DNA of 64,000 bases from a virus. Its lineage: Duplodnaviria; Caudoviricetes. This document shows positions 4,369 through 45,869 of this stretch, piece after piece; positions within the stretch are counted from its first letter, which is position 1; every line of letters starts with the position of its first letter. Below the pieces are notes generated by a model. It made no database searches, was not told the DNA's origin, and saw only the letters and a list, made by a program, of their open reading frames with translations. The DNA lies in IMG/VR virus record IMGVR_UViG_3300017909_004107, positions 32,001 to 96,000 of that record; one strand, written 5' to 3'. The position numbers were made by a program, and so were the translations under genes.

Positions 4369-4550
4369 TGATGTATCATGAGTCTTTATCAAATTTTATG
4401 GAGACAACTTTCGCTTTAGTGCAACATCATAACTGGAGCATCACTGAGATAGAGAACATGGTACCGTGGGAGAAGCAAACTTATGTAAAAATGCTTCAAA
4501 ACTTCATCGAGAAACGTAATTTAGAAAACCAACAAGCAAAGAATGCTTAA
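4368..4550 (+). CDS. gp51: Baseplate hub assembly catalyst gp51
   Basis: FALVQHHNWSITEIENMVPWEKQTYV; directly follows gp26. Confidence 0.88.
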   Translation: MMYHESLSNFMETTFALVQHHNWSITEIENMVPWEKQTYVKMLQNFIEKRNLENQQAKNA

Positions 4551-5832
4551 TCCGGGACAAAAAATGGTGATGATAGGGGGCATGATGATCCCTGAAGGTT
4601 TAGTAATACCTCAAAATTCTATGATACCAAATAGAATAAAAGAGGATGAAAAAACTAAACCAAAACCTTTAGATGTCAAACCATTGTCTCAGAGAATGAG
4701 TATTGCCTATGATAATATTGCTAATAATGAAAAAGAAGGAAAAGAGTTATCACCCAAATATGTTGTTGCATTAGGTAAGTTAGTACTAGAAATAGAACAG
4801 GTAAAAAATAATTTACAAAGTATAGCACAGGAAGTTCAGGCATCAAATAGGAAGAAAAAGGAACTTGATGATCAAGAACTTAAACTATTAGAGGATGAGA
4901 AAGATAGACTAACAGCACTAGGAGCATCTTTTAGAGGTTTTAGAAGGAGACTTGGCGGTATTACTGCTCTCATAGCAGGAAAACAATTTTTAGAGGGTGA
5001 TATTAGTGGAGGAATACAGAATGCCTCCATAGCAGTGGGTGCTCTCTTACCAGATATTGTAAGACTCACAAGTGGTGTGGTTTTAGGTGGAATGCTTAGA
5101 GGTGGTGGTGGAAGAGGAGTAGTAGCACCAAGAGGAGGTGGTAGAGGAAGTTTATTGCCATTGTTATTAGGTGGCGGTGGTTTATTAGGTTTAGGTTCAT
5201 TCTTAGGTTCAAGAGGTAGTGGTGATCAGAGAAGAATTGAATTGACAAAGAGAGAGGCATTTCCACAATTGCTATCACAAAATGATGTTAAAAGATTTAG
5301 ATTAACAACAGATAGATTTGACAATATTTTATCCAATGTCAACAATAATAAATTAAATATAACAACTAGTCCTTTTACTTCCGGAGTGGTAGAGGATGTA
5401 AAATTACCTCCAACTGTGGGTGAATCTGTTGGAGATGACAAAGATAAAATTCTTAATTTTTTAGGTGTAGGTGATAAAGAAGAATCTGATGAAGAAGAAA
5501 CAGAATCTTTGAATACAGATAATATTGAAAGGGAAACAGATCCTTTTGTTGACAACTATATGAACATGTTTAATATACAACCGTTATTTCTTAATTCTCT
5601 TCCTCAAGATCTAACAAACGATGATCTCGCATTTTTAGATGATGATACTATGGGTGAAAATATAAATGTATTTGATTTTGGTGGTGATGATGACGGACAG
5701 AATAATAAGATGGAAGGAGTAAAATATTCACCACAATTAGTATCAAGTAGTAATATATCTGTAAATCCTGAATTCAGTGACAATAGTAAAATAAGTTATA
5801 TTCTACAATATGGTGGAGGGGCAGTAGTATGA
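4543..5832 (+). CDS. Hub/tape-measure-like protein 1
   Basis: Coiled-coil N-terminus, Gly-rich hydrophobic middle, acidic C-terminus; position after gp51. Confidence 0.45.
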   Translation: MLNPGQKMVMIGGMMIPEGLVIPQNSMIPNRIKEDEKTKPKPLDVKPLSQRMSIAYDNIANNEKEGKELSPKYVVALGKLVLEIEQVKNNLQSIAQEVQASNRKKKELDDQELKLLEDEKDRLTALGASFRGFRRRLGGITALIAGKQFLEGDISGGIQNASIAVGALLPDIVRLTSGVVLGGMLRGGGGRGVVAPRGGGRGSLLPLLLGGGGLLGLGSFLGSRGSGDQRRIELTKREAFPQLLSQNDVKRFRLTTDRFDNILSNVNNNKLNITTSPFTSGVVEDVKLPPTVGESVGDDKDKILNFLGVGDKEESDEEETESLNTDNIERETDPFVDNYMNMFNIQPLFLNSLPQDLTNDDLAFLDDDTMGENINVFDFGGDDDGQNNKMEGVKYSPQLVSSSNISVNPEFSDNSKISYILQYGGGAVV

Positions 5833-27649: not shown

Positions 27650-28386
27650 AGTTTAGACTCTACCTCCTGTATGTGGTGTGGACGATCAACTGATCTTATT
27701 TTACCACAATTTAGGTCGTATGGTACAACATTATATTTGCCACAGAACCCAATAGTATCTAGACCTTTCCAATATTTGACAATACCCATATCACAATTAG
27801 GAAAGTCACGAATTACATTTATTTTATACAGATAAAAACCTAACTGAACAATAATATTATCGCACACTATTTCACATTTTCTCATCATATTCGTTATTAC
27901 ACCATTATTGCATATCATTTTTACTACATCTTCGTCTTGTATATCGCTTTGTTCTAACTGTCTCATTGGTTGCACCATATCACACTGATGCCTGACACCA
28001 AACTTTATTACCTGATCTAACCAGTCAGGTTGAGTTAGCGGTTCGTCTCCCTGCAAATTAAGAATGTAATCACTTTCCACATTTTGAGATACCTCTGCAA
28101 CTCTATGAGTGCAAGTGTAGTGTTTTCCTGTAAGTCTGGATTCATAACCCTCCTTTTTGCAAAGATCGACAATTTCGTGATCTTCGGTAGCAACAATAAC
28201 ATTGTCAATATATTTAGACTTTCGTGCAATGTCGGCAACCCTGAGAACCATTGCTCTATCGTGTATGAGAGCAAGTGGTTTTCGTGGAAACCTAGATGAC
28301 GACAGTCTAGCAGGGATTACACATGTAATCTTCTGACCTAGATACATAATTTTTCTCTTGTATAGATATGATAACAGTGGTTGCAA
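27646..28386 (-). CDS. kdsB: CMP-Kdo synthetase-like cytidylyltransferase
   Basis: VIPARLSSSRFPRKPLALI, VATED, THRVAEV, LNLQGDEPL, SVDRP. Confidence 0.8.
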   Translation of the reverse strand: MQPLLSYLYKRKIMYLGQKITCVIPARLSSSRFPRKPLALIHDRAMVLRVADIARKSKYIDNVIVATEDHEIVDLCKKEGYESRLTGKHYTCTHRVAEVSQNVESDYILNLQGDEPLTQPDWLDQVIKFGVRHQCDMVQPMRQLEQSDIQDEDVVKMICNNGVITNMMRKCEIVCDNIIVQLGFYLYKINVIRDFPNCDMGIVKYWKGLDTIGFCGKYNVVPYDLNCGKIRSVDRPHHIQEVESKL

Positions 28387-28428
28387 AATATTGCAACGTG
28401 GAATATTATATAGAATTACAGTTTATCT

Positions 28429-28704
28429 ATGAGAAGAATCAATTTAGGAGACATTGTAACGTCAGGAAACGATACTGGCGAGGTCTGTTTTGTTTCTACT
28501 CATTATTTTTGTATGTGTGTTAGAATGGGGGAGATCGCATTGAATGATGTAAAAATAGTTGTATCCAGAACAATAGACAACTTTGAGATTATACGCAAGG
28601 TGGAGAGTGACAGTTTAGAAAGTGTCACAAAAGAAATTGAAAAGAAATACATGTACAATAGAGTTAGATCAAATCAAAAATGGAGAGTTCCTTATGTTAT
28701 CTGA
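28429..28704 (+). CDS. Hypothetical protein
   Basis: 91 aa ORF at the start of the + strand early block. Confidence 0.5.
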   Translation: MRRINLGDIVTSGNDTGEVCFVSTHYFCMCVRMGEIALNDVKIVVSRTIDNFEIIRKVESDSLESVTKEIEKKYMYNRVRSNQKWRVPYVI

Positions 28705-28867
28705 GAACGAGTACAATCTCATTTGTTATTGTTTAGAACATCAACTATATGAGTTCACACCTGAAGAGAGAAATGATGCTAATAATATAGTAGTCAAATT
28801 ATCAGAGCATGTGACACTTGACAAACTGGCACATAGGCACGAGCGTAGAGATTTAGACACACTATAA
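28694..28867 (+). CDS. Hypothetical small protein (likely ATG at 28694)
   Basis: In frame with ORF 28622..28867; GGAGAG upstream. Confidence 0.4.
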   Translation: MLSENEYNLICYCLEHQLYEFTPEERNDANNIVVKLSEHVTLDKLAHRHERRDLDTL

Positions 28868-28889
28868 TGATAGTATAACAACAAAGATT

Positions 28890-31145
28890 ATGACAGTATC
28901 AATCGAAATCAAAGGTAATCTTGCTAAACTTCTAGCAACTGAAGACCTTATCATAGAGCATAAACCAGTCGAGACAGCATCATTTGATGTTGACAGAAGA
29001 GTACTTACTCTACCTGTATGGGATAGAGCAAGTGAGACTGTTTACGATATGCTAGTGGCACATGAGGTGGGTCATGCCCTATACACACCTAATAGAGAGT
29101 GGTTCTTAGAACCAGAGTGGAAAACAATACCAAAGGATTATGTCAATGTGGTTGAAGATGCTCGCATTGAAAGACTTATCAAGCAAAGATACAGAGGTCT
29201 CAACAGAGATTTCAAAAATGGATACAATGAATTACATAATGATGATCTATTTGAATTATCAGATCAGAATGTAAATCATTTGAAACCTATTGACAAAATC
29301 AATCTATACTTCAAGATCGGTGGTTACATTGACATTGAGTTCAATGACACTGAGAATGAGTTTGTGACCAGAATATCTAAATGTCAAACATTTGACGAGG
29401 TACTTGTTATATCTAAAGAGATACATGAGTACACTAAAGAAATGCAAGAGCAAATGCAGAAGCAAGCAAATGCCGAGCAAAAAGAGTCCGAAGCACAAGA
29501 TAATGGCAAAGTCGAGTCCAGACCTGACATGTCAAAATCTAATGATGATACTCAAGCACAAAAAGATGAGCAAAAAACTGATACTCAAGGAGAACCAGAA
29601 GAAGAACCAGTACAAAGTAGATCAGACAAATCATTTCCTGATGAAGTAGATGATACTGAACAGGAACAGAAACAGGAAGAGATACAGAATTCTGGGGATA
29701 CTCAAGGTGGAGAGTTCGGAGACATCAATACTGCTACAACTCAGAGATCACTTGATGAGAGTATTGAAGACTTGACCAACACATATAAAGATCAAGTGCC
29801 TACACAATATGTTACTATCCCGAACATGGTTTTGGATAAAGTTGTTGTTGATTTCAATACTATCAAGACATATCTTGATGAACATTTTGTCAAGGAAAAT
29901 ACTACTGACTCATCAAATCAATTCTTGATCGAGCATACAAGAAGATTCAATGATTTCAAGAAGTCCAGTAACAAAGAAGTCAACTATCTTGTCAAAGAGT
30001 TTGAAATGAAAAAATCAGCAGACTCATATTCTAGACAGGCAACAGCAAAGACTGGTATGCTTGACACATCTAAATTGCACACATATATGTACAATGAAGA
30101 TATATTCAGAAAGGTAACAACAATACCTGACGGAAAGAATCATGGTCTTATATTTGTTCTGGACTGGTCAGGTTCAATGAACAGTATACTTGAAGATACT
30201 CTCAAGCAATTATTTCAATTAGTCTGGTTCTGTAAAAAGACTCAAATCCCTTACGAGGTCTACGCTTTTACAAATGATTCATGGCAATTAGGTAAGAGTG
30301 ATGATAATGCTGACCAACCACATTCATCATACAGAAGTGCATCACAGGAAATTCTGGTTGATAAGTGGAAAGAGGGAGACATCAATATTGATGGGTATTT
30401 CCGTATGGTAAACATATTATCATCTAAGGCAAGAACCAAAGATATTGAAAAGCAAATGCTAAACTTGTGGTTGACAAACTGTAGTTTCAAGTATCACTAC
30501 AATCATCATTTCCCACACCCTGCTAAGTTTCATCTATCAGGCACACCATTGAATGAAGCAATCATTTGTACTAAACAATTAGTCAAGCAAATGATGAAGA
30601 AAATCCAGAAGGTACACGTTGTTATCCTGACTGATGGAGAAGCACATCAACCTAGTTACAATGTTGACAGATCAAAATTACATGATGGTTATGGTCTAGA
30701 TCATAAGGGTACAAGATCAATCAATTCAACTTGTATGTTGAGAAATCGTAAGTCAGGAAAGACTTACGGATTGACCTATAGTAATTGTTCATTGAAACTC
30801 ATTGAGTGCATCAAGGACGATCTACCTAATGTCTCATTCATTGCTTTCAGAGTGGTTGAGAGGGGTGGTATGAGATATGTCTGGACTCAGTATGGTATGG
30901 AGACATATCCTGATTACGAGGTCATGAAAGAGCAAATCAAGAAAGGCAATCTTTCACTCACATTGAACTCATACGATAAATTCTTTATGATACCACAGCA
31001 TCATCTAAGTGTGGACTCAGATCAACTAGAACAAGTTGAAGAGGGTGCATCTAAGGGAGAAGTCTCAAAGGCATTTCGTAAGATGTTCAAAAACAAAAAG
31101 ACTAACAAGTTTATGCTCTCAGAGTTTGCGAAAGCAATCGCATAA
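28890..31145 (+). CDS. CobT-like protein: HExxH metallopeptidase-like domain + acidic linker + vWA domain
   Basis: AHEVGHAL, NVVEDARIE, FVLDWSGSM (MIDAS), SGTPLNEA, ILTDGE; partner of the downstream AAA+ ATPase. Confidence 0.85.
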   Translation: MTVSIEIKGNLAKLLATEDLIIEHKPVETASFDVDRRVLTLPVWDRASETVYDMLVAHEVGHALYTPNREWFLEPEWKTIPKDYVNVVEDARIERLIKQRYRGLNRDFKNGYNELHNDDLFELSDQNVNHLKPIDKINLYFKIGGYIDIEFNDTENEFVTRISKCQTFDEVLVISKEIHEYTKEMQEQMQKQANAEQKESEAQDNGKVESRPDMSKSNDDTQAQKDEQKTDTQGEPEEEPVQSRSDKSFPDEVDDTEQEQKQEEIQNSGDTQGGEFGDINTATTQRSLDESIEDLTNTYKDQVPTQYVTIPNMVLDKVVVDFNTIKTYLDEHFVKENTTDSSNQFLIEHTRRFNDFKKSSNKEVNYLVKEFEMKKSADSYSRQATAKTGMLDTSKLHTYMYNEDIFRKVTTIPDGKNHGLIFVLDWSGSMNSILEDTLKQLFQLVWFCKKTQIPYEVYAFTNDSWQLGKSDDNADQPHSSYRSASQEILVDKWKEGDINIDGYFRMVNILSSKARTKDIEKQMLNLWLTNCSFKYHYNHHFPHPAKFHLSGTPLNEAIICTKQLVKQMMKKIQKVHVVILTDGEAHQPSYNVDRSKLHDGYGLDHKGTRSINSTCMLRNRKSGKTYGLTYSNCSLKLIECIKDDLPNVSFIAFRVVERGGMRYVWTQYGMETYPDYEVMKEQIKKGNLSLTLNSYDKFFMIPQHHLSVDSDQLEQVEEGASKGEVSKAFRKMFKNKKTNKFMLSEFAKAIA

Positions 31146-31225
31146 ACCAATCATCAAAGTGGCACATTGCTTATTGCATTGCCACTTTGCCCCAATTACA
31201 ATAAACACATAAGCAATCAATCATT

Positions 31226-32356
31226 ATGCCAAGAACAATCAACTTTGAACCACACTTTGATGCAATCACTTCTAAGTATGGTCAGGAACTAGATGCTGAT
31301 ATGGTCAAGGAGTATGTTGCAAACAATCCTGACGTATCCTATCAGACTGTCACTAAGTACCTAAACAAATGGAAAATATCTAGAGGTAAGTGGAATATCA
31401 AGACACCACAACAAGAGACTCAGATACCAACTGCTACATTCCAAGTACAGCAACCACAATCAACTAAACTCACAAAGACTGAGAAAGTTGAACAGAATCT
31501 TATCCCTGCAAAGGATAACACATTCATTCCTTTTGGCAACTTCCCTGCACTCAAGAAAGTAATCGCATCTAGGGAGTTCTATCCTACATTCATCACTGGT
31601 ATGAGTGGCAATGGTAAGACATTCGGTGTTGAGCAAGCATGCTCTCAGTTGAACAGAGAACTTATCAGAGTCAACATTACAGTCGAGACTGACGAGGACG
31701 ATTTGATCGGTGGTTTCAGACTTGTCAATGGTCAAACAGTATGGCACAATGGTGCTGTTGTTGAAGCGTTAGAGCGTGGTGCAATCTTATTACTTGATGA
31801 GATCGATCTAGCATCAAACAAGATACTATGCTTACAACCCATACTAGAGGGCAAAGGTCTGTTTCTCAAGAAGATTGGCGAGTACATCAAACCTGCTAAA
31901 GGATTCAATGTCATTGCTACTGCTAACACAAAGGGTAAGGGTTCTGATGATGGTCGTTTCATAGGTACTAACATACTCAATGAAGCGTTCCTTGAGAGAT
32001 TCCCTATCACATTCGAGCAAGAGTATCCTACAGTCGTGACTGAGAAAAAGATACTTACAAGATTATGTGAAGAGATCGGCATACCACTTACAGGAGATCA
32101 CAAAGGATTCATTGACTACCTATGTGACTGGAGTGATATTGTAAGACGTACATTCAAAGACGGTGGTGTTGATGAAATCATATCCACTCGTAGACTCGTT
32201 CACATCATGAGAGCATATCAAATCTTCGGCGATAAAGTCAAAGCAATGCAAATGTGTCTCAACAGATTTGATGACGAGACTAAAGAGTCATTCATGCAAC
32301 TCTATACTAAACTAGACGAGCATATCAAGTCAGAAGAGAATGTTACCGAGTCGTAA
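31226..32356 (+). CDS. cobS: CobS/MoxR-family AAA+ ATPase
   Basis: Walker A GMSGNGKT, Walker B LLLDEID, ATANTKGKG, NEAFLERF, STRRL. Confidence 0.92.
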   Translation: MPRTINFEPHFDAITSKYGQELDADMVKEYVANNPDVSYQTVTKYLNKWKISRGKWNIKTPQQETQIPTATFQVQQPQSTKLTKTEKVEQNLIPAKDNTFIPFGNFPALKKVIASREFYPTFITGMSGNGKTFGVEQACSQLNRELIRVNITVETDEDDLIGGFRLVNGQTVWHNGAVVEALERGAILLLDEIDLASNKILCLQPILEGKGLFLKKIGEYIKPAKGFNVIATANTKGKGSDDGRFIGTNILNEAFLERFPITFEQEYPTVVTEKKILTRLCEEIGIPLTGDHKGFIDYLCDWSDIVRRTFKDGGVDEIISTRRLVHIMRAYQIFGDKVKAMQMCLNRFDDETKESFMQLYTKLDEHIKSEENVTES

Positions 32357-32363
32357 CATTCCC

Positions 32364-32392
32364 TTGACAGGGTAAACCAAACCTGTCATAAT
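32364..32392 (+). promoter_or_regulatory. Sigma70-type promoter TTGACA-N17-CATAAT
   Basis: Read directly; embedded in the TGACAGG/CCTGTCA inverted repeat. Confidence 0.75.
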
Positions 32393-32474
32393 GAGTATGT
32401 CAGTCAAGGTTTTGATTGATGACTGTTGACTGACAAACTCTTTCGAGTCCTGTCGTATGACCTAAAACTAGGCA

Positions 32475-32714
32475 TTGAAAACTTACAACATTATGATTAT
32501 GCAAATCACAGGTTCTTCCGCTATCGCAAACGTAAACTTCAAAGACGCTAGTCTTGTTGGTATCACATTCACATCACAAGATACTGAATATGATTTCCTT
32601 GCGAAGGATTCAAACCTTGTTCGTAATGAACTAAGTAATGCTATCTCTAAGGGAGACAGCGTTGGTAAGTTGATCGCTTCATACAGAAGAGAAGGTCAAC
32701 TAACAGAAGTGTAA
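32475..32714 (+). CDS. Small KTSC-like protein (true start probably a downstream ATG near 32493-32499)
   Basis: SSAIANVNF...VGITFTS..EYDF...LSNAISKGDSVGKLIASYRR resembles the KTSC pattern. Confidence 0.5.
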   Translation: MKTYNIMIMQITGSSAIANVNFKDASLVGITFTSQDTEYDFLAKDSNLVRNELSNAISKGDSVGKLIASYRREGQLTEV

Positions 32715-32770
32715 TCTAGAATTACACAAAGACAATTGAATATTTTGATACTAGCATAATCTCGCAAAGC

Positions 32771-32797
32771 AAACCCACTCACAAGGTGGGTTTTCTT
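32771..32797 (+). terminator. Intrinsic terminator
   Basis: AAACCCAC-loop-GTGGGTTT followed by TCTT. Confidence 0.65.
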
Positions 32798-32877
32798 ATG
32801 CCAATTTATATACTGGTACGAACTGGTTGTTATAGCATAACAATTATACTATAATGAGTATATCAATCAAACATACA

Positions 32878-33402
32878 ATGATTACAGCAAAAGACATTTT
32901 ACAATTCAAGACACACAAAGTTTCTCTACAAGAAAGTAAGAGTTGTATCTACAATGGTAGTCCGTTTCAAATCTACAAACAAATGAGTAGTAAGAAGAAA
33001 GGGGCAAGGTTCGAGGGTATTGTACAAGAGTATTGCACAAACTTAGGATACAAAGTTACAAAACCAGATAACTCAGATCATGATAGAAAGATCAACAATA
33101 TCAAGGTTGAGATCAAGGGTTCAATGTTATGGTCTAATCCACAGTTTTTCCGTTGGCAACAATTACGACCGCATCAAGATTATGATGTTGTTATATTCCT
33201 TGCAATATTCCCACAACAAATAGAATTCTATGGGTGTACAAAACAAGATATAAAAGATCATCTTGAAATACAGGACGAGAAGGGCAACTGGATACACAAC
33301 CAACATGGAGGACTCAAGGTCAACTCAGGCACATTCTTTTTGGATAGTGACGGTCTAACCATACCCACATGGTTCAAATCAATCAAAGAGGTATTACAAT
33401 GA
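32878..33402 (+). CDS. Putative PD-(D/E)xK restriction-type endonuclease
   Basis: KGARFE...DHD...KVEIKGS...FRWQQLRP.QDYD; ATG 32878 follows promoter -10 at 32850; ATGA overlap with the MTase. Confidence 0.65.
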   Translation: MITAKDILQFKTHKVSLQESKSCIYNGSPFQIYKQMSSKKKGARFEGIVQEYCTNLGYKVTKPDNSDHDRKINNIKVEIKGSMLWSNPQFFRWQQLRPHQDYDVVIFLAIFPQQIEFYGCTKQDIKDHLEIQDEKGNWIHNQHGGLKVNSGTFFLDSDGLTIPTWFKSIKEVLQ

Positions 33403-34187
33403 AACTCAACACAATTACAAACTCAGACTGTTTGAAGTATCTAAAGAAACTACCAGACAACTCAGTTGATCTCGTATTGACTGACCCGCCATACTTCATA
33501 GGATTTGACGGTGGTAAGGGTTGGGATAGTCAATGGAAGAGTGACAGGGAGTACATTCAATGGTGTATAGAGTGGACTAAGGAGTGTGTCAGGGTACTCA
33601 AGGACGAGCGTATGCTCGTTGTATGGGGTACTCTCAAGACTGAAGCGTTCTTGCTATACAAACTAGCACTCAATCGTATGGAAGGTATCAAACCACAGAA
33701 TGAGATCATTTGGTCTTATAACTGGGGTGGTAGGTCTAAGGATAACTTTGCTCGTAAACATGAGTATGCTTGGTGCTATTCGACAGGTGATAAATTTTTA
33801 TTCAACGGTGATGATGTAAGAATTGATCGTAAGATGAATACTAACATAAGAACTGGATTACAGCATACAAAGGGAACTATACCAACATGTGTATGGGAGA
33901 AGAACAATCACACAACCAGTAAGGACTATATCGGTTGGCATGCTACAACTAAGAACATTGATATACTGTCAAGAATAATCAAGGCATATACAAATGTCAA
34001 TGATGTGGTTCTGGACTGTTTCATGGGTTCTGGAAGTACAGCAGTTGCAAGTATCAGGACTGGACGTAACTTCATAGGGTGTGAAAGAGATAAAGAATAC
34101 TACACAAAGGCAAAGAAACGTATTTGTGACAGTCAAAAAAGTGACACTAAAAACTTGTCTAAGGCAAGTCTAGCGTCTATACTATAG
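33399..34187 (+). CDS. Beta-class N6-adenine/N4-cytosine DNA methyltransferase
   Basis: TDPPY catalytic motif precedes LDCFMGSGST SAM-binding motif; start 33399 overlaps the nuclease stop. Confidence 0.92.
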   Translation: MKLNTITNSDCLKYLKKLPDNSVDLVLTDPPYFIGFDGGKGWDSQWKSDREYIQWCIEWTKECVRVLKDERMLVVWGTLKTEAFLLYKLALNRMEGIKPQNEIIWSYNWGGRSKDNFARKHEYAWCYSTGDKFLFNGDDVRIDRKMNTNIRTGLQHTKGTIPTCVWEKNNHTTSKDYIGWHATTKNIDILSRIIKAYTNVNDVVLDCFMGSGSTAVASIRTGRNFIGCERDKEYYTKAKKRICDSQKSDTKNLSKASLASIL

Positions 34188-36525
34188 ACATGTACAGGAG
34201 TTACACCTATGAGACAATTCACAGTTTCAGCACTTCTTGAAGGATATAGGGTGGAAGAGACTGTAACAGCAGTTTCTATTCATCATGCTATCAGAATCAT
34301 GAAGGCAAAGTATGGCAATTCTGCTAGAAACATTTACGTCCTAAACTAATCAATCAAATGAACAGAACTAAACAACAACTTCAGAGAGACATTCAATTCT
34401 GCAGAAATGTCTTAGGTCTTACTGACGAGCAAACCGATCAAATGATTATGGTCTGCGACAAATTGAAAATAGGTGCAGAGTATTTCTCAGAGGAATTCGT
34501 ATTCGAGGGAGACGGTATTCAATCTATTATCAGACTCAATGACCCTGACTATCTCAAAATCACATGGAGACTAGAATGAAACTAGACATCAACAAAGAGG
34601 AACAGCAAATCTTATTAGATGCTATGATGTTCTACTTCACATTCTACTATTACAATACAAAAGGTCATACAACAGACAACCTCGTTGACCAGTATAGTGT
34701 ATGGTATGAGAAACTCACTCGTCAAGAGACAAAATCAATTTTTGAAAAGGTATTTCATGGAACTTAGAAAAGATAGCTAGGTCAATTCAAAGACTGACAC
34801 ACAATCGGTTGCTATTCTATTGTAACCGATTATTATAATACTATAGCAATCAATCAATCATGGCAATGACACCTCGACAATTCATGGAAGAAGTTTACGA
34901 GATAGCGTATGGCGATCAAGCATACTATCGTGGTTTCTTTCCAGAAGAAGTGCTAGAAACACTCAGAGAATTTTCAGATAATGCTCTCAAGGTCGAAGAG
35001 TTGAGTCTAGAACCCGAACAGTATGAAGACATGGATAGGCAACTCGAAGAGTCTTACCGCAGAGGATACATGGACGGTCGTAAATTTGCATTACAGCAAC
35101 AAGAATCATGAAACAGTACACTATTACAGCAATCAAAGAGTATGAATACACTAAGACAGTTTTCGCTGAAAACCTCGTTGATGCACATGTCAAGGCATTT
35201 GAGAAACCAGAAGACCCAGAGGACGATTGGCAACTTATTACTGACCCTGACTATGATGACCACAACCCTTACAACATTTCACTAATTGAGGAATCATGAC
35301 TCTACCATTGAAAACAGTCACTTACACATTTGATGAACTACACGCTTTTAGCGAACACGTTACTTGGTGCATCATGGAACAAGATCAACCAGTAGATGAC
35401 AACCTACAATCGTTTATCGACAAAACTTTATACGATAATCAATTATGAAAGTCTACACTCTACTATTGACAGAAGGCGAGATCAATTCGTTGAAAGATCG
35501 TCTTGAGTCAGACAACTACGTCAATTATGACAATGATCTCAAATCAGTAGTTGAAAAGATCGGGTATTTCTTTGAACCCGAAAACACTTACAATGACATT
35601 CCTGAGAGGTATTGAACATGGACAAACTAACTAAAGAACAATTTGACACACTCAAAGAGTTATATGTTGAAAGACTCGTTGATAATATGTCAACAAAAGA
35701 CCTCGTGAATTATGTTATGACTGACTTATCAGAGTGGGTTGACGGTCTCGGATATACTGAAGCAATGAATGAATTTGAGAACTACTGGCAAGAATACTTC
35801 ACAGATACGATAAATGAGGTGCTAGAGGGTCAGATATAAAAGTGTCATCATATCGTTGACTTATAGTATCATAACGTTTATTATAAGAGTAATTCAATCA
35901 ATCACATGAACTCAGGAACAGCAGAAAGAGATCTAAACCAAGAACTCAAAGATTTTATCGATTATGTTTTTTCGTTTTATGGAGACGTTGACCCTGTTTA
36001 TCCTATGAGAAAAGTTATTGGAGACGCTCCACTCAATAAGAGTGATATTCTAGATGCTACCTATGACTACCTATCAGCAATTTCTAAGAGAAATTCTGAG
36101 ACTTACACATGGGGCGAGGGCGATAGTCTTGATCGTGAAAGAGTGAGAGATATTCTATTACAGAATTACGATTTCTACCTCGTTCATTTACAGCATGGTA
36201 ACATTTGATACCATAGCAGAAATTCGTTGAAATTGGTAGTTGACATACTCAAGACTACCATATAATATAAAAGTAATCAATCAATCAAACAATCATGGCA
36301 AAAACAAAACTAATCACAGTTGACGGATTCACACTAGATGAGCGTTACAGAGTCAGTTTACAATGGTGCGGTCACGCTTATCCATTATGGGTTGCAACAT
36401 TTTGTGATGATGAGATTCTAGGGTGGTATAAAACTGAAGATGAAGCGAAAACCGCATGCCTAGTTTATAGAAAATCTCAAGTCAAGTCACTCAATTTTAC
36501 TTGGGACTAATCAATTTCGATTATG

Positions 36526-36567
36526 GTATCATTTGATACAACATTATGATACCATAACCATTATAAT
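36526..36567 (+). promoter_or_regulatory. NtcA-type promoter
   Basis: GTATCATTTGATAC-N22-TATAAT. Confidence 0.75.
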
Positions 36568-36754
36568 AGAAACATCAATCAATTCAAAAACTATGATCCA
36601 ATTAGGCATGTATGTAAATCACAAAATCCATGATGATCTCAACGGAAGTGAGGTTATATTATTGGATAGAGTGACTAATACCGCAGTCATAAAAAACTGG
36701 TTCGACGAATTTGATTTTCAGACTATAGAAGTATTTTTATCAGATTTGGAAATG

Positions 36755-36796
36755 GTATAATCTGATACAACACAATAATACAATACCCACTATAAT
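36755..36796 (+). promoter_or_regulatory. NtcA-type promoter
   Basis: GTATAATCTGATAC-N22-TATAAT. Confidence 0.75.
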
Positions 36797-37177
36797 AGAA
36801 ACATCAATCAATCAATCAATCACTATGGACGCTTATCAAAAAAGAATTCTCTACGCTATCAACAAAAGAGAATCATGCAGTCTAAGAAATCACGTTACAG
36901 TATGGAACAGTTATCATACAGGCAACGAATTTACAAGTGCTATCAGAGTACAAAACAAGACAGTTGCAACTGTTCACTATAAACTTAGTCATGATGACCT
37001 ATCTGTCAACATACATGGGGGAACATCAAAAGATTTTGATGATATGATGAAAAATGATAAATGGGAGATCGAAGAGTTATTTGTAAATGAGCAGGCAGTT
37101 CAACGTTGTTTAGGTACTCAGGCAAGAAGAGTTGTAAATTTCTTGAATCAGGCACTTTTTACCTAATTTCTAAAATG

Positions 37178-37219
37178 GTATCAAATGATACAACATTATG
37201 ATACCATAACCACTATAAT
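37178..37219 (+). promoter_or_regulatory. NtcA-type promoter
   Basis: GTATCAAATGATAC-N22-TATAAT. Confidence 0.75.
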
Positions 37220-38072
37220 AGAAACATCAATCAATCATTATTATGTTTGTAATTTACACCAGTCCAGTCAAATTTACGACTGACGAAAATCACGCTCGCA
37301 TTATTGCTGAAGATCACTTTCAGCAAACTCGCGAAATAGTTGCTATCGAAGAAATCGATACAACAAAAGAATTTTATACAACATCACTATAGGAGGTTTT
37401 TACAATGTCAGTTTTACATCATGAGGGCATACTTGAAACTTGTTTTGAAGATGCTTATGAGTCTTTCAGAATCGAAAACAATTATACAATTTCAGAAATG
37501 GAAGATTTGTATATTGAGAATCAAAACCTTAGAATGAGACTAGAAGAAGTTGCTACACAGTTATTTGAGGATAAATGCCAGTAACTAACCAATTCTATAA
37601 ATCATTCTCTCAAATCGGAATAGGGGATAAAGTCAAGTATCTCACAATAGATTATCAGGTTATCATGAGATTTGACACTAATGAATGTGTTGTATTACAT
37701 AATGATCTAGGCAATATTTCAACCTATAACTGGGAAGAACTTGAAATAATTGACCTAATGAATGAGTAACTCATATTTTACTTGTTTAGAGAGTCGAAAG
37801 AAATTTATTGACATTCGACTCTTATCCACTATAATGTAAGTAAATCAATCAATCACTCAAATGTTCACAAAAACAACTAAGTCTCAAGCGATCGAACAAT
37901 TCAAGTATAATTGGAAGGTTTACACGCTAAGATGCAAACGTGAAGGTTTACCAGTCACAAAACTAGCAAAAGTTTTTGCATGGAATGATTATACTGAATT
38001 TCTTGCAAGTGATGGATACATTACTGAATGGCAAAGAGCAAACTGGACAAATCCCTACGAATATCGAAATTA

Positions 38073-38114
38073 GTATCGAATGATACTAGACAAACGTCCA
38101 GAATCCACTATAAT
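38073..38114 (+). promoter_or_regulatory. NtcA-type promoter
   Basis: GTATCGAATGATAC-N22-TATAAT. Confidence 0.75.
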
Positions 38115-38497
38115 AACAGTATAGCAATCAATCAATCAATCAATCATGACAACACTAAAATCAATTCTACTCGACGCAATCAATCAAGACTTAGAATCAA
38201 GCGATTACTCTAACAATGCTATACTCGATAATACTGACTCTAAAAACTGGTCAGACTCAGATAAATTTGAATGGTGCTTCGATCGCTACATGATCGAGGT
38301 AGGTGGTTATGAAAGTCTAGAATATTGGTTTTCAGGTTTAGCACTTAGTGGAATTCCATTTACATATTATGAGATCGGAAAGTTAGGATTCAATACTGAT
38401 ACATTCTTTCAAGATTTATCTGACGAATTGCAGAGAATTACAGGATACAGCGATAGAAAAGCATATAAGAGAAAGTTGAGAGCATAAAAAAAGATAT

Positions 38498-38536
38498 AGG
38501 GAACTGGTTGACAGTTCCCTTTTTTTCCCTTATAAT
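38498..38536 (+). promoter_or_regulatory. Consensus sigma70 promoter overlapping an intrinsic terminator
   Basis: TTGACA(38508)-N17-TATAAT(38531); AGGGAACTG/CAGTTCCCT stem followed by a T run. Confidence 0.85.
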
Positions 38537-39022
38537 AAAGTATATCAATCAATCAATCAAAAAAATGGAATTCAATCTTACTGAACTTACAAACAAGTCT
38601 TATATCTGGAGTACATTTTCAAAAGTGTCTCAAGATACATCTCTCATCATGAGAATGAATTGCACACAAAAGAGTGGTAACACAGAAACAAGAGTCAGGC
38701 AAGACGGTAGTCGTATTGTAGACGTATTTCTACATGGTAACCTCATCTGTTCATACAATCCTACAAACTACGATAATCAGAAAGTCAAATTATTCTCAGC
38801 AGGTTACTACACAAAAACAACAAAAGAACGACTCAATGCAATTTTACACTTACATACGAATGGTAAGGTTAGAATCGTACAAGTTAGAGGTAAGTGGATA
38901 GTCAGAGATTCAAATACTGGTGCAGAGATCAATTTCTACGACGGCATGGTAGTATTTCAAAAACCTCTAACACTAGCAGATATTGAGGAAACAAAACAAT
39001 TAGAATTTATACCAGTATAGGG

Positions 39023-39051
39023 TTGACATACTCACATATAACCCTTATAAT
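39023..39051 (+). promoter_or_regulatory. Consensus sigma70 promoter
   Basis: TTGACA-N17-TATAAT. Confidence 0.85.
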
Positions 39052-39598
39052 AAAGTATATCAATCAATCACTAATCAATCATGAATTTATTTGATGCAGT
39101 TCCAGTAGTAGTCAAAGAAAGATACGACGGTTATGTAGTAGGCGATTCTATTTCAACTAAAGACTTTCAATCAACTATGAATGAGGTTATCGACCGTTGC
39201 GAAAACTTTACAAGAGAAACACTTGACTCACAGACATACATGCAAATTAGGAGAATGGTCAGTAATGCTATCGACCTATTGCTACATGATAGGAGGACAT
39301 TCGACAGCATGATGACTGACATACTTATAGATGATTTATGGAGTTAGGAGGGCGTTACGCAAAATGAAAGAAATATCATTATAAATCTAAAAGTGTTATT
39401 TCTTTCATTCTCTTAGCGGTCATCTTATAAAAGTCAACCAAACTTCACAAAATCCACACAATTCTCCCAGATTCGTGATTATGACAGTATCGTGTAATTT
39501 TTCGTTTATTGAATCGTCCTTACATCATCGTCCACACTTTGAGACAGTTATGCAGGATTTTGAAAAAAGCAAATTGTTACATAATCCAAACAAAAGGG

Positions 39599-39627
39599 TT
39601 GACAGTATGACAAACACGCATTATAAT
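39599..39627 (+). promoter_or_regulatory. Consensus sigma70 promoter with no sizeable downstream ORF
   Basis: TTGACA-N17-TATAAT. Confidence 0.85.
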
Positions 39628-39632
39628 AAAGG

Positions 39633-39785
39633 CATGGGAAGGAGGTTTTAGTTAGCACTGGCAAACAGTTAGGATAAACCACCCGACCAACTCACACGAT
39701 ACCCGAAGCGAGGGGAATCGAATCAGACAGTTATAAACAGTTCTGGGCGGTTCTCCCCGTTTTTTTATGGGGGGCGGTGCCCGTT
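39633..39785 (+). ncRNA. Candidate structured non-coding RNA
   Basis: GC-enriched, several hairpins, only a 5-codon ORF after a perfect promoter. Confidence 0.4.
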
Positions 39786-39886
39786 ATTAAAACAATGGGT
39801 CCTTCTAACCTACAAACGTTTCCAGACGCGAGAGTGATATCGACTTTCAGTTACATCAAATATCAAAATTTTTTTCGGATATAAAA

Positions 39887-44946: not shown

Positions 44947-45456
44947 TTATTGAACTGGCACATACATCTGACCATACTTGCCGAATACCTCTTTGAATCG
45001 GTCCATATCTTTACCCAGATAGATGATGGCAGATTGAAATGGTGCAGCACTAGCAGCAGCACCAAACCTTAGACGCTTGTTTACAGCAATCCAAGGATAT
45101 TTGGTGATTGCTCTCCACCATTTGGTAGAAACATCCAGTTTGATGAGAAGAACCATTTCTTTTGCATTTCCAGATTCATACTGGAGTGCAGCATAAGGAA
45201 CCCAAGTTTTAGAATCAGAATATGGATGATTCATAAAAACTTTTCCCAACCACGGATGTGCTAAACCGTTGGTTTCTTCAGTATAAAGAACCTTGGCAGG
45301 TACATTCGGATTGTTGACATCATTACAACACGGGTCAGTATCAATCTGCCCGTCGAAGAACTTAACAACGTCGCCAACAAATTCGACAGGAGTGTTCCAA
45401 CAATCAGTACGATTGCCCGTAGTTGCTGTTAGTGCCTTGAGTGCAGTTGATGTCAT
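44947..45456 (-). CDS. Phage Dam-like DNA N6-adenine methyltransferase
   Basis: DCWNTP, DTDPC, TNGLAHPW.GKVFMNHPYS (NPPY variant), RLRF, APFQSAIIY. Confidence 0.82.
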   Translation of the reverse strand: MTSTALKALTATTGNRTDCWNTPVEFVGDVVKFFDGQIDTDPCCNDVNNPNVPAKVLYTEETNGLAHPWLGKVFMNHPYSDSKTWVPYAALQYESGNAKEMVLLIKLDVSTKWWRAITKYPWIAVNKRLRFGAAASAAPFQSAIIYLGKDMDRFKEVFGKYGQMYVPVQ

Positions 45457-45869
45457 TGATAGGTATACTCTTGAACAAATTGATCGTGATTGATGATACG
45501 AACGTCTGGATAGATAGACTTCATTTTAGCACGGAAATCGTCAGAAAGATAGTAATCTTTCCACTTCCATGCTTTATCTGGTCCAGCAACAATAATCGTT
45601 GCAGATTTATATCCATGGTCATCAATCGCATGTTGCAATTTCATGAACTCAAAAGGAATTTTCTCCTCTGCTGTTCCTTGAACACGTTGATACTTTAGAC
45701 TGATAAGTTCAATTTTGTTGATAACAATGTCACAGTAATGTTTGCCACCATTACGTTTTGCACCAATCATAACTTGTGACTCTACTTCATGGTCACTGAA
45801 TTGTTCTAGAAGATTCTCAACTTCTGTTTCATATTTAGTTCCTGTTGTAGTATTACGAGACATAATCAA
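45453..45869 (-). CDS. PD-(D/E)xK nuclease-like protein
   Basis: GTKYETEV...YCDIVI...ISLKYQRVQGTAEEKIPFE; ATGA overlap with the Dam-like gene. Confidence 0.65.
   Translation of the reverse strand: MIMSRNTTTGTKYETEVENLLEQFSDHEVESQVMIGAKRNGGKHYCDIVINKIELISLKYQRVQGTAEEKIPFEFMKLQHAIDDHGYKSATIIVAGPDKAWKWKDYYLSDDFRAKMKSIYPDVRIINHDQFVQEYTYQ

Follow-up and report, generated by a model that had tools for sequence, protein, structure and literature searches.

A putative TTAA-specific restriction–modification gene pair in an uncultured marine cyanomyovirus

A nuclease gene and a DNA methyltransferase gene lie side by side in the genome of an uncultured marine T4-like cyanomyovirus (with baseplate, tail-fibre, peptidase and cobS genes), and on the evidence of sequence comparison and predicted structure we propose that they probably constitute a phage-borne type II restriction–modification (R–M) system cutting TTAA, a 4-bp palindrome, with MseI-like specificity. 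The stretch analysed, hereafter the window, is 64,000 nucleotides long and corresponds to bases 32001–96000 of a 120,973-bp IMG/VR viral contig (IMGVR_UViG_3300017909_004107), which is estimated to be 61% complete and has a G+C content of 36%. The whole comparison took in about 130 related phage sequences. Both open reading frames (ORFs) are encoded on the plus strand where a first-pass annotation of the window had placed them (Table 1), and they are translationally coupled through an ATGA overlap, the methyltransferase ATG occupying 33399–33401 and the nuclease TGA 33400–33402. An earlier in-frame ATG for the nuclease, at 32854, falls within the −10 hexamer of the site upstream, and the starts of homologues correspond to 32878; we therefore keep this position as the start, as in that annotation. 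The pair has its own promoter-like site, with the −10 at 32850 as annotated, and two relatives with nucleases 69–94% identical to that of the window preserve the −10 together with the sequence around it (ACTATAATGAGTATA). This site may fire early in infection. The unit upstream is closed by a terminator-like hairpin, the stem of which is kept via compensatory changes in L005 and L006 (nuclease identities in the two relatives, 94% and 69%).

Table 1. Features of the nuclease–methyltransferase locus, its TTAA-free surroundings and the compared loci. Positions are those of the window unless a locus is named.
Feature	Position	Strand	Basis or remark
174-aa (amino-acid) PD-(D/E)xK nuclease, putative TTAA-specific type II restriction endonuclease	32878..33402	+	fold, motif, PADLOC profile
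262-aa beta-class N6-adenine-type DNA methyltransferase (DPPY ... FMGSGST), putative cognate methylase	33399..34187	+	PF01555
sigma-70-type promoter-like site, TTGTTA-N17-TATAAT	32827..32855 (−10 at 32850–32855)	+	10/12 consensus matches
terminator-like hairpin and T-run closing the upstream unit	~32773..32800	+	scan: stem 32777–32791; 1–2 extra pairs on each side and the T-run read in addition
TTAA-free island of 11.7 kb with the pair near its middle	28062..39786	.	0 TTAA against 48 expected (second-order Markov)
PvuII-like nuclease ORFs	L079: 12313–12951; L081: 12274–12912		replace the window's nuclease before the methyltransferase
second pair, 138-aa PDDEXK_11 nuclease	45456–45869	−	PF20472, 27.2 bits (cut-off 23.7)
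second pair, 169-aa Dam-family methyltransferase	44950–45456	−	PF05869, E 9e-16; coupled to the nuclease
79-aa ORF between cobS and the pair	32475–32714; L079: 11444–11701; L081: 11416–11676	+ (window)	conserved in relatives

The nuclease gives nothing significant in Pfam, NCBIfam or PDB sequence searches and belongs to phrog_6927, a family of unknown function. It is, however, matched by the PADLOC type II restriction endonuclease profile REase_II PDLC03515 (E 4e-15; residues 31–130 against profile positions 31–128 of 186), a model that states no specificity and comes from a library without a curated cut-off; the homologue in the cultured phage S-ShM2 matches the same profile at E 1.4e-22 over positions 23–155. 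The AlphaFold (AF2) model has a predicted local distance difference test (pLDDT) score of 91.3 and a predicted template modelling (pTM) score of 0.83. Its top structural match is the homing endonuclease I-Ssp6803I (Z 11.8, root-mean-square deviation 2.4 over 115 residues; Foldseek E 2.5e-4), with further matches to NhoI (Z 9.9), to Hjc-type resolvases (Z 8.4–8.5, within the range of shared-fold matches) and to PvuII, EcoRV, NaeI and DpnI. E54, D77 and E86-x-K88 (numbered from the 32854 start) are invariant in an alignment of 34 homologues, which also reveals a C-terminal NQHGG...NSGT motif particular to the family. By fold, pLDDT and invariant residues, the protein has the recognised PD-(D/E)xK catalytic core of a type II endonuclease. 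The PD-(D/E)xK call of the first-pass annotation is thus upheld by the fold matches, the invariant E-D-ExK and the PADLOC profile, and the outcome that it had named as telling against the call, the absence of such a fold, did not occur: the model matches restriction-endonuclease-like folds. No relative of the nuclease turned up when 185,579 genomes of bacteria and archaea were scanned with family patterns. A hidden Markov model search of 1.8 billion representatives returned 886 relatives; the ten clusters of these that were looked up bear no informative name, two members being labelled only 'hypothetical protein', and a protein atlas gave only viral clusters without names, along with a weak hint of a link to restriction endonucleases of the Bsp6I type.

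The structural match to I-Ssp6803I, together with the patchy distribution of the gene at more than one locus, would fit a free-standing PD-(D/E)xK homing endonuclease that spreads its own gene and the methyltransferase via a long site in phages lacking the cassette. We consider such an enzyme very improbable here. The gene sits between small ORFs and the methyltransferase gene and is neither in nor next to an interrupted conserved gene, and PADLOC groups its product with type II restriction endonucleases. Coupling to the methyltransferase is conserved, and methyltransferase decay coincides with loss of TTAA. The genomic signature described below is, moreover, the loss of a 4-mer, which a long site would not purge from 192 kb.

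The methyltransferase matches PF01555 over the full length of the model (1–221 of 221; E 1.9e-49, 169 bits against a cut-off of 26.7). DPPY (motif IV) lies near residue 30 and FMGSGST (motif I) near residue 207, the motif order of the beta class to which the enzyme had already been assigned. It therefore has the character of the separate, linked methyltransferase of type II R–M systems, with intact catalytic and S-adenosylmethionine (AdoMet) motifs. The nearest solved relatives, M.MboIIA, M.RsrI and CcrM, differ among themselves in target (GAAGA, GAATTC and GANTC) and are, at about 30% identity, too distant for the specificity to be read from them.

Homologues of the nuclease occur in 19 records of cultured phages and in 41 contigs of IMG/VR. 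About 30 of these contigs also encode, on the same strand, a homologue of the methyltransferase that starts −15 to +50 bp from the nuclease end, and since identities across the paired loci range over 42–94% for the nuclease and 40–97% for the methyltransferase, the linkage has been conserved over deep divergence. The nuclease occurs without the methyltransferase in L016, L024, L025, L044 and L045 and in the cultured phages S-ShM2, S-SSM2 and S-RIM14; in S-BM3 the nuclease and a homologous methyltransferase lie 82 kb apart. The genes in these cultured cyanomyoviruses (S-BM3 SBM3_00004, S-ShM2 SShM2_059, and those of S-SSM2 and S-RIM14) make up the T4-GC 685 'restriction endonuclease', which is homologous to the window's nuclease at 37–43% identity and, unlike it, stands apart from any methyltransferase. 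The S-BM3 homologue is annotated just 'restriction endonuclease', and the searchable literature on the T4-GC 685 gene gives no specificity and no link to TTAA.

At the cobS-downstream locus of two relatives, L079 and L081, a methyltransferase 78–80% identical to that of the window is coupled to a different ORF of 212–213 amino acids. The model of this protein (pLDDT 88.9) matches PvuII in Foldseek (E 4e-7), and its family has its own invariant E-D-EYK. Profile–profile comparison with the window's nuclease family gives a probability of 0.2%, indicating that the two families are non-homologous. The PvuII-like family occupies 41 viral loci, mostly with the methyltransferase directly after, and TTAA is scarce at many of them, where gaps of 5–14 kb occur. 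Similar methylases with unrelated nucleases are the usual pattern among isoschizomeric R–M systems, and a swap of the nuclease beside the same methyltransferase is hard to explain unless the upstream gene is the restriction partner of the methylase. The 79-amino-acid ORF between cobS and the pair is conserved in relatives, the loci with the alternative nuclease included. The R–M-like coupled pair put forward in the first-pass annotation agrees with the predicted structure, with the fold and profile searches and with the comparative context, and we regard a nuclease–methylase pair of R–M type as very likely.

The first-pass annotation had further suggested that the pair might explain an avoidance of TTAA, or else of CCWGG or AGCT, and had recommended checking whether TTAA depletion and the pair co-occur across related phages. 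We expressed TTAA content as observed over expected counts (O/E), the expectation coming from a second-order Markov model. Phages with the nuclease and no working methyltransferase have all but lost the word. A complete genome of 192,351 bp with the nuclease and no methyltransferase homologue (G001) has 0/693. A 112 kb sequence (G002) has 0/322; its methyltransferase (L012, L013, L018 and L031; ~4519–5160) has lost about 50 internal amino acids and has a destroyed motif IV, in which EPPP or EPPS stands in place of DPPY. Two further carriers without a working methyltransferase have 0/170 (G004) and 2/219 (G005), both sites in the latter lying within the last 250 bp of the contig. S-ShM2, with the nuclease alone, has 0/173 in 50 kb far from the nuclease gene. 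In 38 cobS-anchored or cultured loci lacking the nuclease, S-PM2 and S-SSM5 among them, the count is 3159/3498 (0.90); the largest TTAA gaps of non-carriers measure 0.4–2.2 kb, and the only TTAA-free exception is one 7 kb fragment. Long carriers with an intact methyltransferase have O/E values of 0.12–0.44, and the genome of the window, in which both genes are intact, has 301 TTAA sites against 678 expected (0.44).

In the nuclease tree, lineages without a working methyltransferase occur at six separate places, all of them at zero TTAA (six zero-TTAA lineages against 0/37 non-carrier loci; Fisher p = 1.6e-7, lineage independence being only approximate). Every locus that retains TTAA has a methyltransferase with DPPY and FxGSGST. 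Loss of TTAA thus tracks the state of both nuclease and methyltransferase, and the comparison of carriers with non-carriers lends strong support to the proposed link between the pair and TTAA avoidance. As TTAA persists only where the methyltransferase is intact and is gone where that enzyme is missing or dead, the two enzymes may share a recognition sequence at which methylation blocks cleavage.

TTAA is the sole 4-mer absent from all three solitary-type genomes tested, and no 5- or 6-mer lacking TTAA is jointly missing from the TTAA-free genomes tested. Because no other shared missing word of these lengths was found, we take the target to be TTAA itself and not a longer word, an assignment that we hold with good confidence. 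An R–M pair that recognises something other than plain TTAA, with the joint loss of TTAA reflecting common ancestry or ecology of the carriers, would be compatible with a specificity drawn from word statistics and with solved methyltransferases that are about 30% identical and have other targets. It seems unlikely, given that a site longer than TTAA would leave some TTAA, that the carriers are spread over several deep clades, and that the 4-, 5- and 6-mer comparisons point to TTAA alone.

The pair was also described as lying inside a TTAA-free block, and this block is real. The gap measures 11,729 bp (window 28058–39787) and extends 4.8 kb to the left of the pair and 5.6 kb to its right; elsewhere in the 121 kb genome TTAA gaps reach 2.3 kb at most. 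In every one of the six long contigs that have the nuclease and an intact methyltransferase, the cassette lies within the largest TTAA-free gap (8.7–16.4 kb). This gap makes up 0.09–0.31 of each contig, the product over the six being about 5e-6, although several have the cobS-linked locus in common and may have inherited the island from a common ancestor. We considered whether the island is merely the cobS, or early, transcription unit and rejected this, as the island edges differ between relatives and the island accompanies the cassette where cobS is not nearby: the 109 kb contig of G007 has neither a cobS nor a peptidase gene and still displays the pattern, indicating that the island follows the cassette and not the early-gene unit. 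Relatives at 88% identity have TTAA at different positions, so the sites turn over quickly. Identity to the nearest relatives is mosaic genome-wide; it changes from 78% to 88.5% some 0.7 kb outside the left edge of the island, a suggestive, though not decisive, clue to the origin of the island.

Several other words are also depleted in these phages. In the genome of the window (G000), GCGC (1/34), AGCT (13/206) and GGCC (9/39) are strongly depleted, and CCWGG is absent (0/99), as it is from the two nearest relatives (0/37 in G011 and 0/40 in G012). These four words were considered as targets of the pair and rejected: AGCT (0.09) and GGCC (0.07) are equally depleted in the closest non-carriers and in carriers, and CCWGG is normal in carriers of the solitary nuclease (265/304 in G001 and 88/97 in S-ShM2). 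By the same comparisons, the suggestion that AGCT or CCWGG might be the avoided word linked to the pair falls away.

Other phages of the set have words missing of their own, as counted over both strands (loci L046–L061 and L122–L125 cover G001, G002 and G005). G001 is without AGTACT (0/70), GACGTC (0/36) and TTCGAA (0/38); G002 is without CTGCAG (0/50); and G005 is without CCGG (0/102), CAAGG (0/69) and GGTACC (0/33).

The window encodes a second coupled nuclease–methyltransferase pair on the minus strand, comprising a PDDEXK_11 nuclease and a Dam-family methyltransferase (Table 1). At the 22 viral loci of this second pair TTAA (0.86) and CCWGG (0.69) are both normal and GATC stands at 0.49. 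The second pair was accordingly rejected as the cause of the loss of either TTAA or CCWGG, and its normal TTAA content makes it a negative control for the association of TTAA loss with the first. The absence of CCWGG stems from neither of the two pairs.

TTAA avoidance might alternatively be imposed by TTAA-specific restriction in the hosts, the pair being a passenger or else an orphan-like protective methylase beside an unrelated recombination or repair nuclease. Other restriction-type words are indeed fully purged lineage by lineage in these phages, and the fold of the nuclease resembles that of the Hjc resolvases. We nevertheless regard this alternative as unlikely. S-SSM5, which has no nuclease, and S-ShM2, which has one, both infect strain WH8102, and their TTAA counts are 193/214 and 0/173, respectively; this contrast on one host strain weighs against host restriction as the cause. 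Across six lineages, freedom from TTAA instead goes with having the nuclease and with the state of the methyltransferase, the island tracks the cassette within genomes, and an unrelated nuclease with the same methyltransferase yields the same TTAA signature. Linkage to the methyltransferase and the TTAA signature make a structure-specific, Hjc-type activity, which would have no sequence target, less likely.

A number of observations weigh against our proposal that the pair is an R–M system directed at TTAA. Its putative specificity derives from word statistics and comparison, and the best structural match of the nuclease is a homing endonuclease. Complete lineage-specific purges of other words (AGTACT, CTGCAG, CCGG and CCWGG) are common here, which means that host restriction alone can empty a genome of a word. 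An intact methyltransferase should make avoidance needless, so the depletion and the island in the genome of the window call for an additional assumption, either leaky protection or linkage. Pooled over 36 carriers, TTAA density is flat with distance from the cassette and shows no gradient. Import of the island from the sampled TTAA-free lineages was not detectable, the peptidase and cobS genes being no closer to those lineages than to TTAA-normal relatives. Several solitary copies of the PvuII-like nuclease lie in TTAA-containing DNA. Finally, ACG-2014f (L003, KJ019103 36918–37454) encodes a distant nuclease homologue, 31% identical, in DNA with TTAA at 13/26, and no methyltransferase match was found there at the E 1e-30 limit used; this homologue is either an exception to the TTAA rule or a relative with another specificity.

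If the pair does target TTAA, the methylase would mark the adenine of TTAA on phage DNA and the nuclease would cut the DNA of the host and of co-infecting phages at unmethylated TTAA. Leaky protection by the methylase would then cause TTAA to be selected against genome-wide, giving the O/E of 0.44 seen here. Two explanations can be offered for the island. DNA tightly linked to the nuclease may have been exposed longest, with distal segments renewed by recombination with TTAA-rich non-carriers; or selection may act against cuts near the cassette, since repair from a cassette-less template would risk loss of the cassette. The likely path would lead from nuclease and methylase together, through a purge of TTAA and the decay or loss of the methylase, to a solitary nuclease in a TTAA-free genome. 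As for its uses, host-DNA breakdown and exclusion of competitors are both plausible, and we would put the chance that the pair serves them at about even.

More tentatively, and with the balance tipping slightly against it when taken in full, the cassette may be pictured as a selfish element that drives competition and remodels entire phage genomes. Nuclease and methylase would enter a genome together, and leaky protection would drive the removal of TTAA, fastest in the 5–8 kb on either side of the cassette. The resulting island of site avoidance would be held against gene flow from TTAA-rich non-carriers, or would be selected because nearby cuts convert the cassette away. Once the genome is free of TTAA the methylase would decay, leaving a solitary frequent-cutter to destroy host DNA and any co-infecting phage bearing TTAA. 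Two unrelated nucleases would each have come to partner this one methylase in that role.

Known systems offer partial parallels. Chloroviruses encode type II R–M systems (CviAI/M.CviAI and CviAII/M.CviAII of PBCV-1); their own DNA is methylated, and host DNA is probably degraded early so that nucleotides can be recycled. These appear to be the closest biological parallel, in that a lytic double-stranded DNA virus pairs a small, frequently cutting type II endonuclease with an adenine methyltransferase cognate to it. Unlike the chloroviruses, the virus here is a T4-like myovirus and its host a cyanobacterium, the nuclease belongs to a family that Pfam does not model, the methylase is gone from many relatives, which have purged the site genome-wide instead, and methylase carriers show a site-free island. 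By inferred specificity the closest system would be MseI of Micrococcus sp., which with its isoschizomers recognises TTAA; the likeness, in putative TTAA recognition and protection by adenine methylation, is a functional one drawn from word statistics only. With type IIP endonucleases such as PvuII and EcoRV the nuclease shares a small single-domain architecture and a PD-(D/E)xK core with E...D...ExK, but it has no detectable sequence similarity to them, and the NQHGG...NSGT motif is specific to its own family. Complete restriction-site avoidance is exemplified by Staphylococcus phage K, which is free of GATC. As in phage K, a short palindrome is wholly absent from genomes of more than 100 kb; unlike in phage K, the nuclease apparently driving the avoidance is encoded by the phage and not by the host. 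A literature search found no report of a TTAA system, of TTAA-free cyanophage genomes or of TTAA methylation in phages that matches this pair. In its predicted features, from the catalytic core of the nuclease to the intact, linked methylase, the pair would work like a type IIP R–M system.

Should this hold, abundant marine cyanophages would carry their own frequent-cutter restriction enzyme, which would be a candidate cause of part of the rapid host-DNA breakdown that accompanies infection by cyanomyoviruses and would serve as a weapon against phages infecting at the same time. Self-protection would be achieved in two interchangeable ways, by methylation or by ridding the genome, up to 192 kb long, of every site, and the window would represent an intermediate, with both genes and a site-free island around them. 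The nuclease would found a new restriction endonuclease family, possibly one that supplies new TTAA isoschizomers. The path from an R–M system to a solitary nuclease would be testable in cultured phages, namely S-ShM2, which has the nuclease alone, S-BM3, in which nuclease and methyltransferase are apart, and S-SSM5, which has neither.

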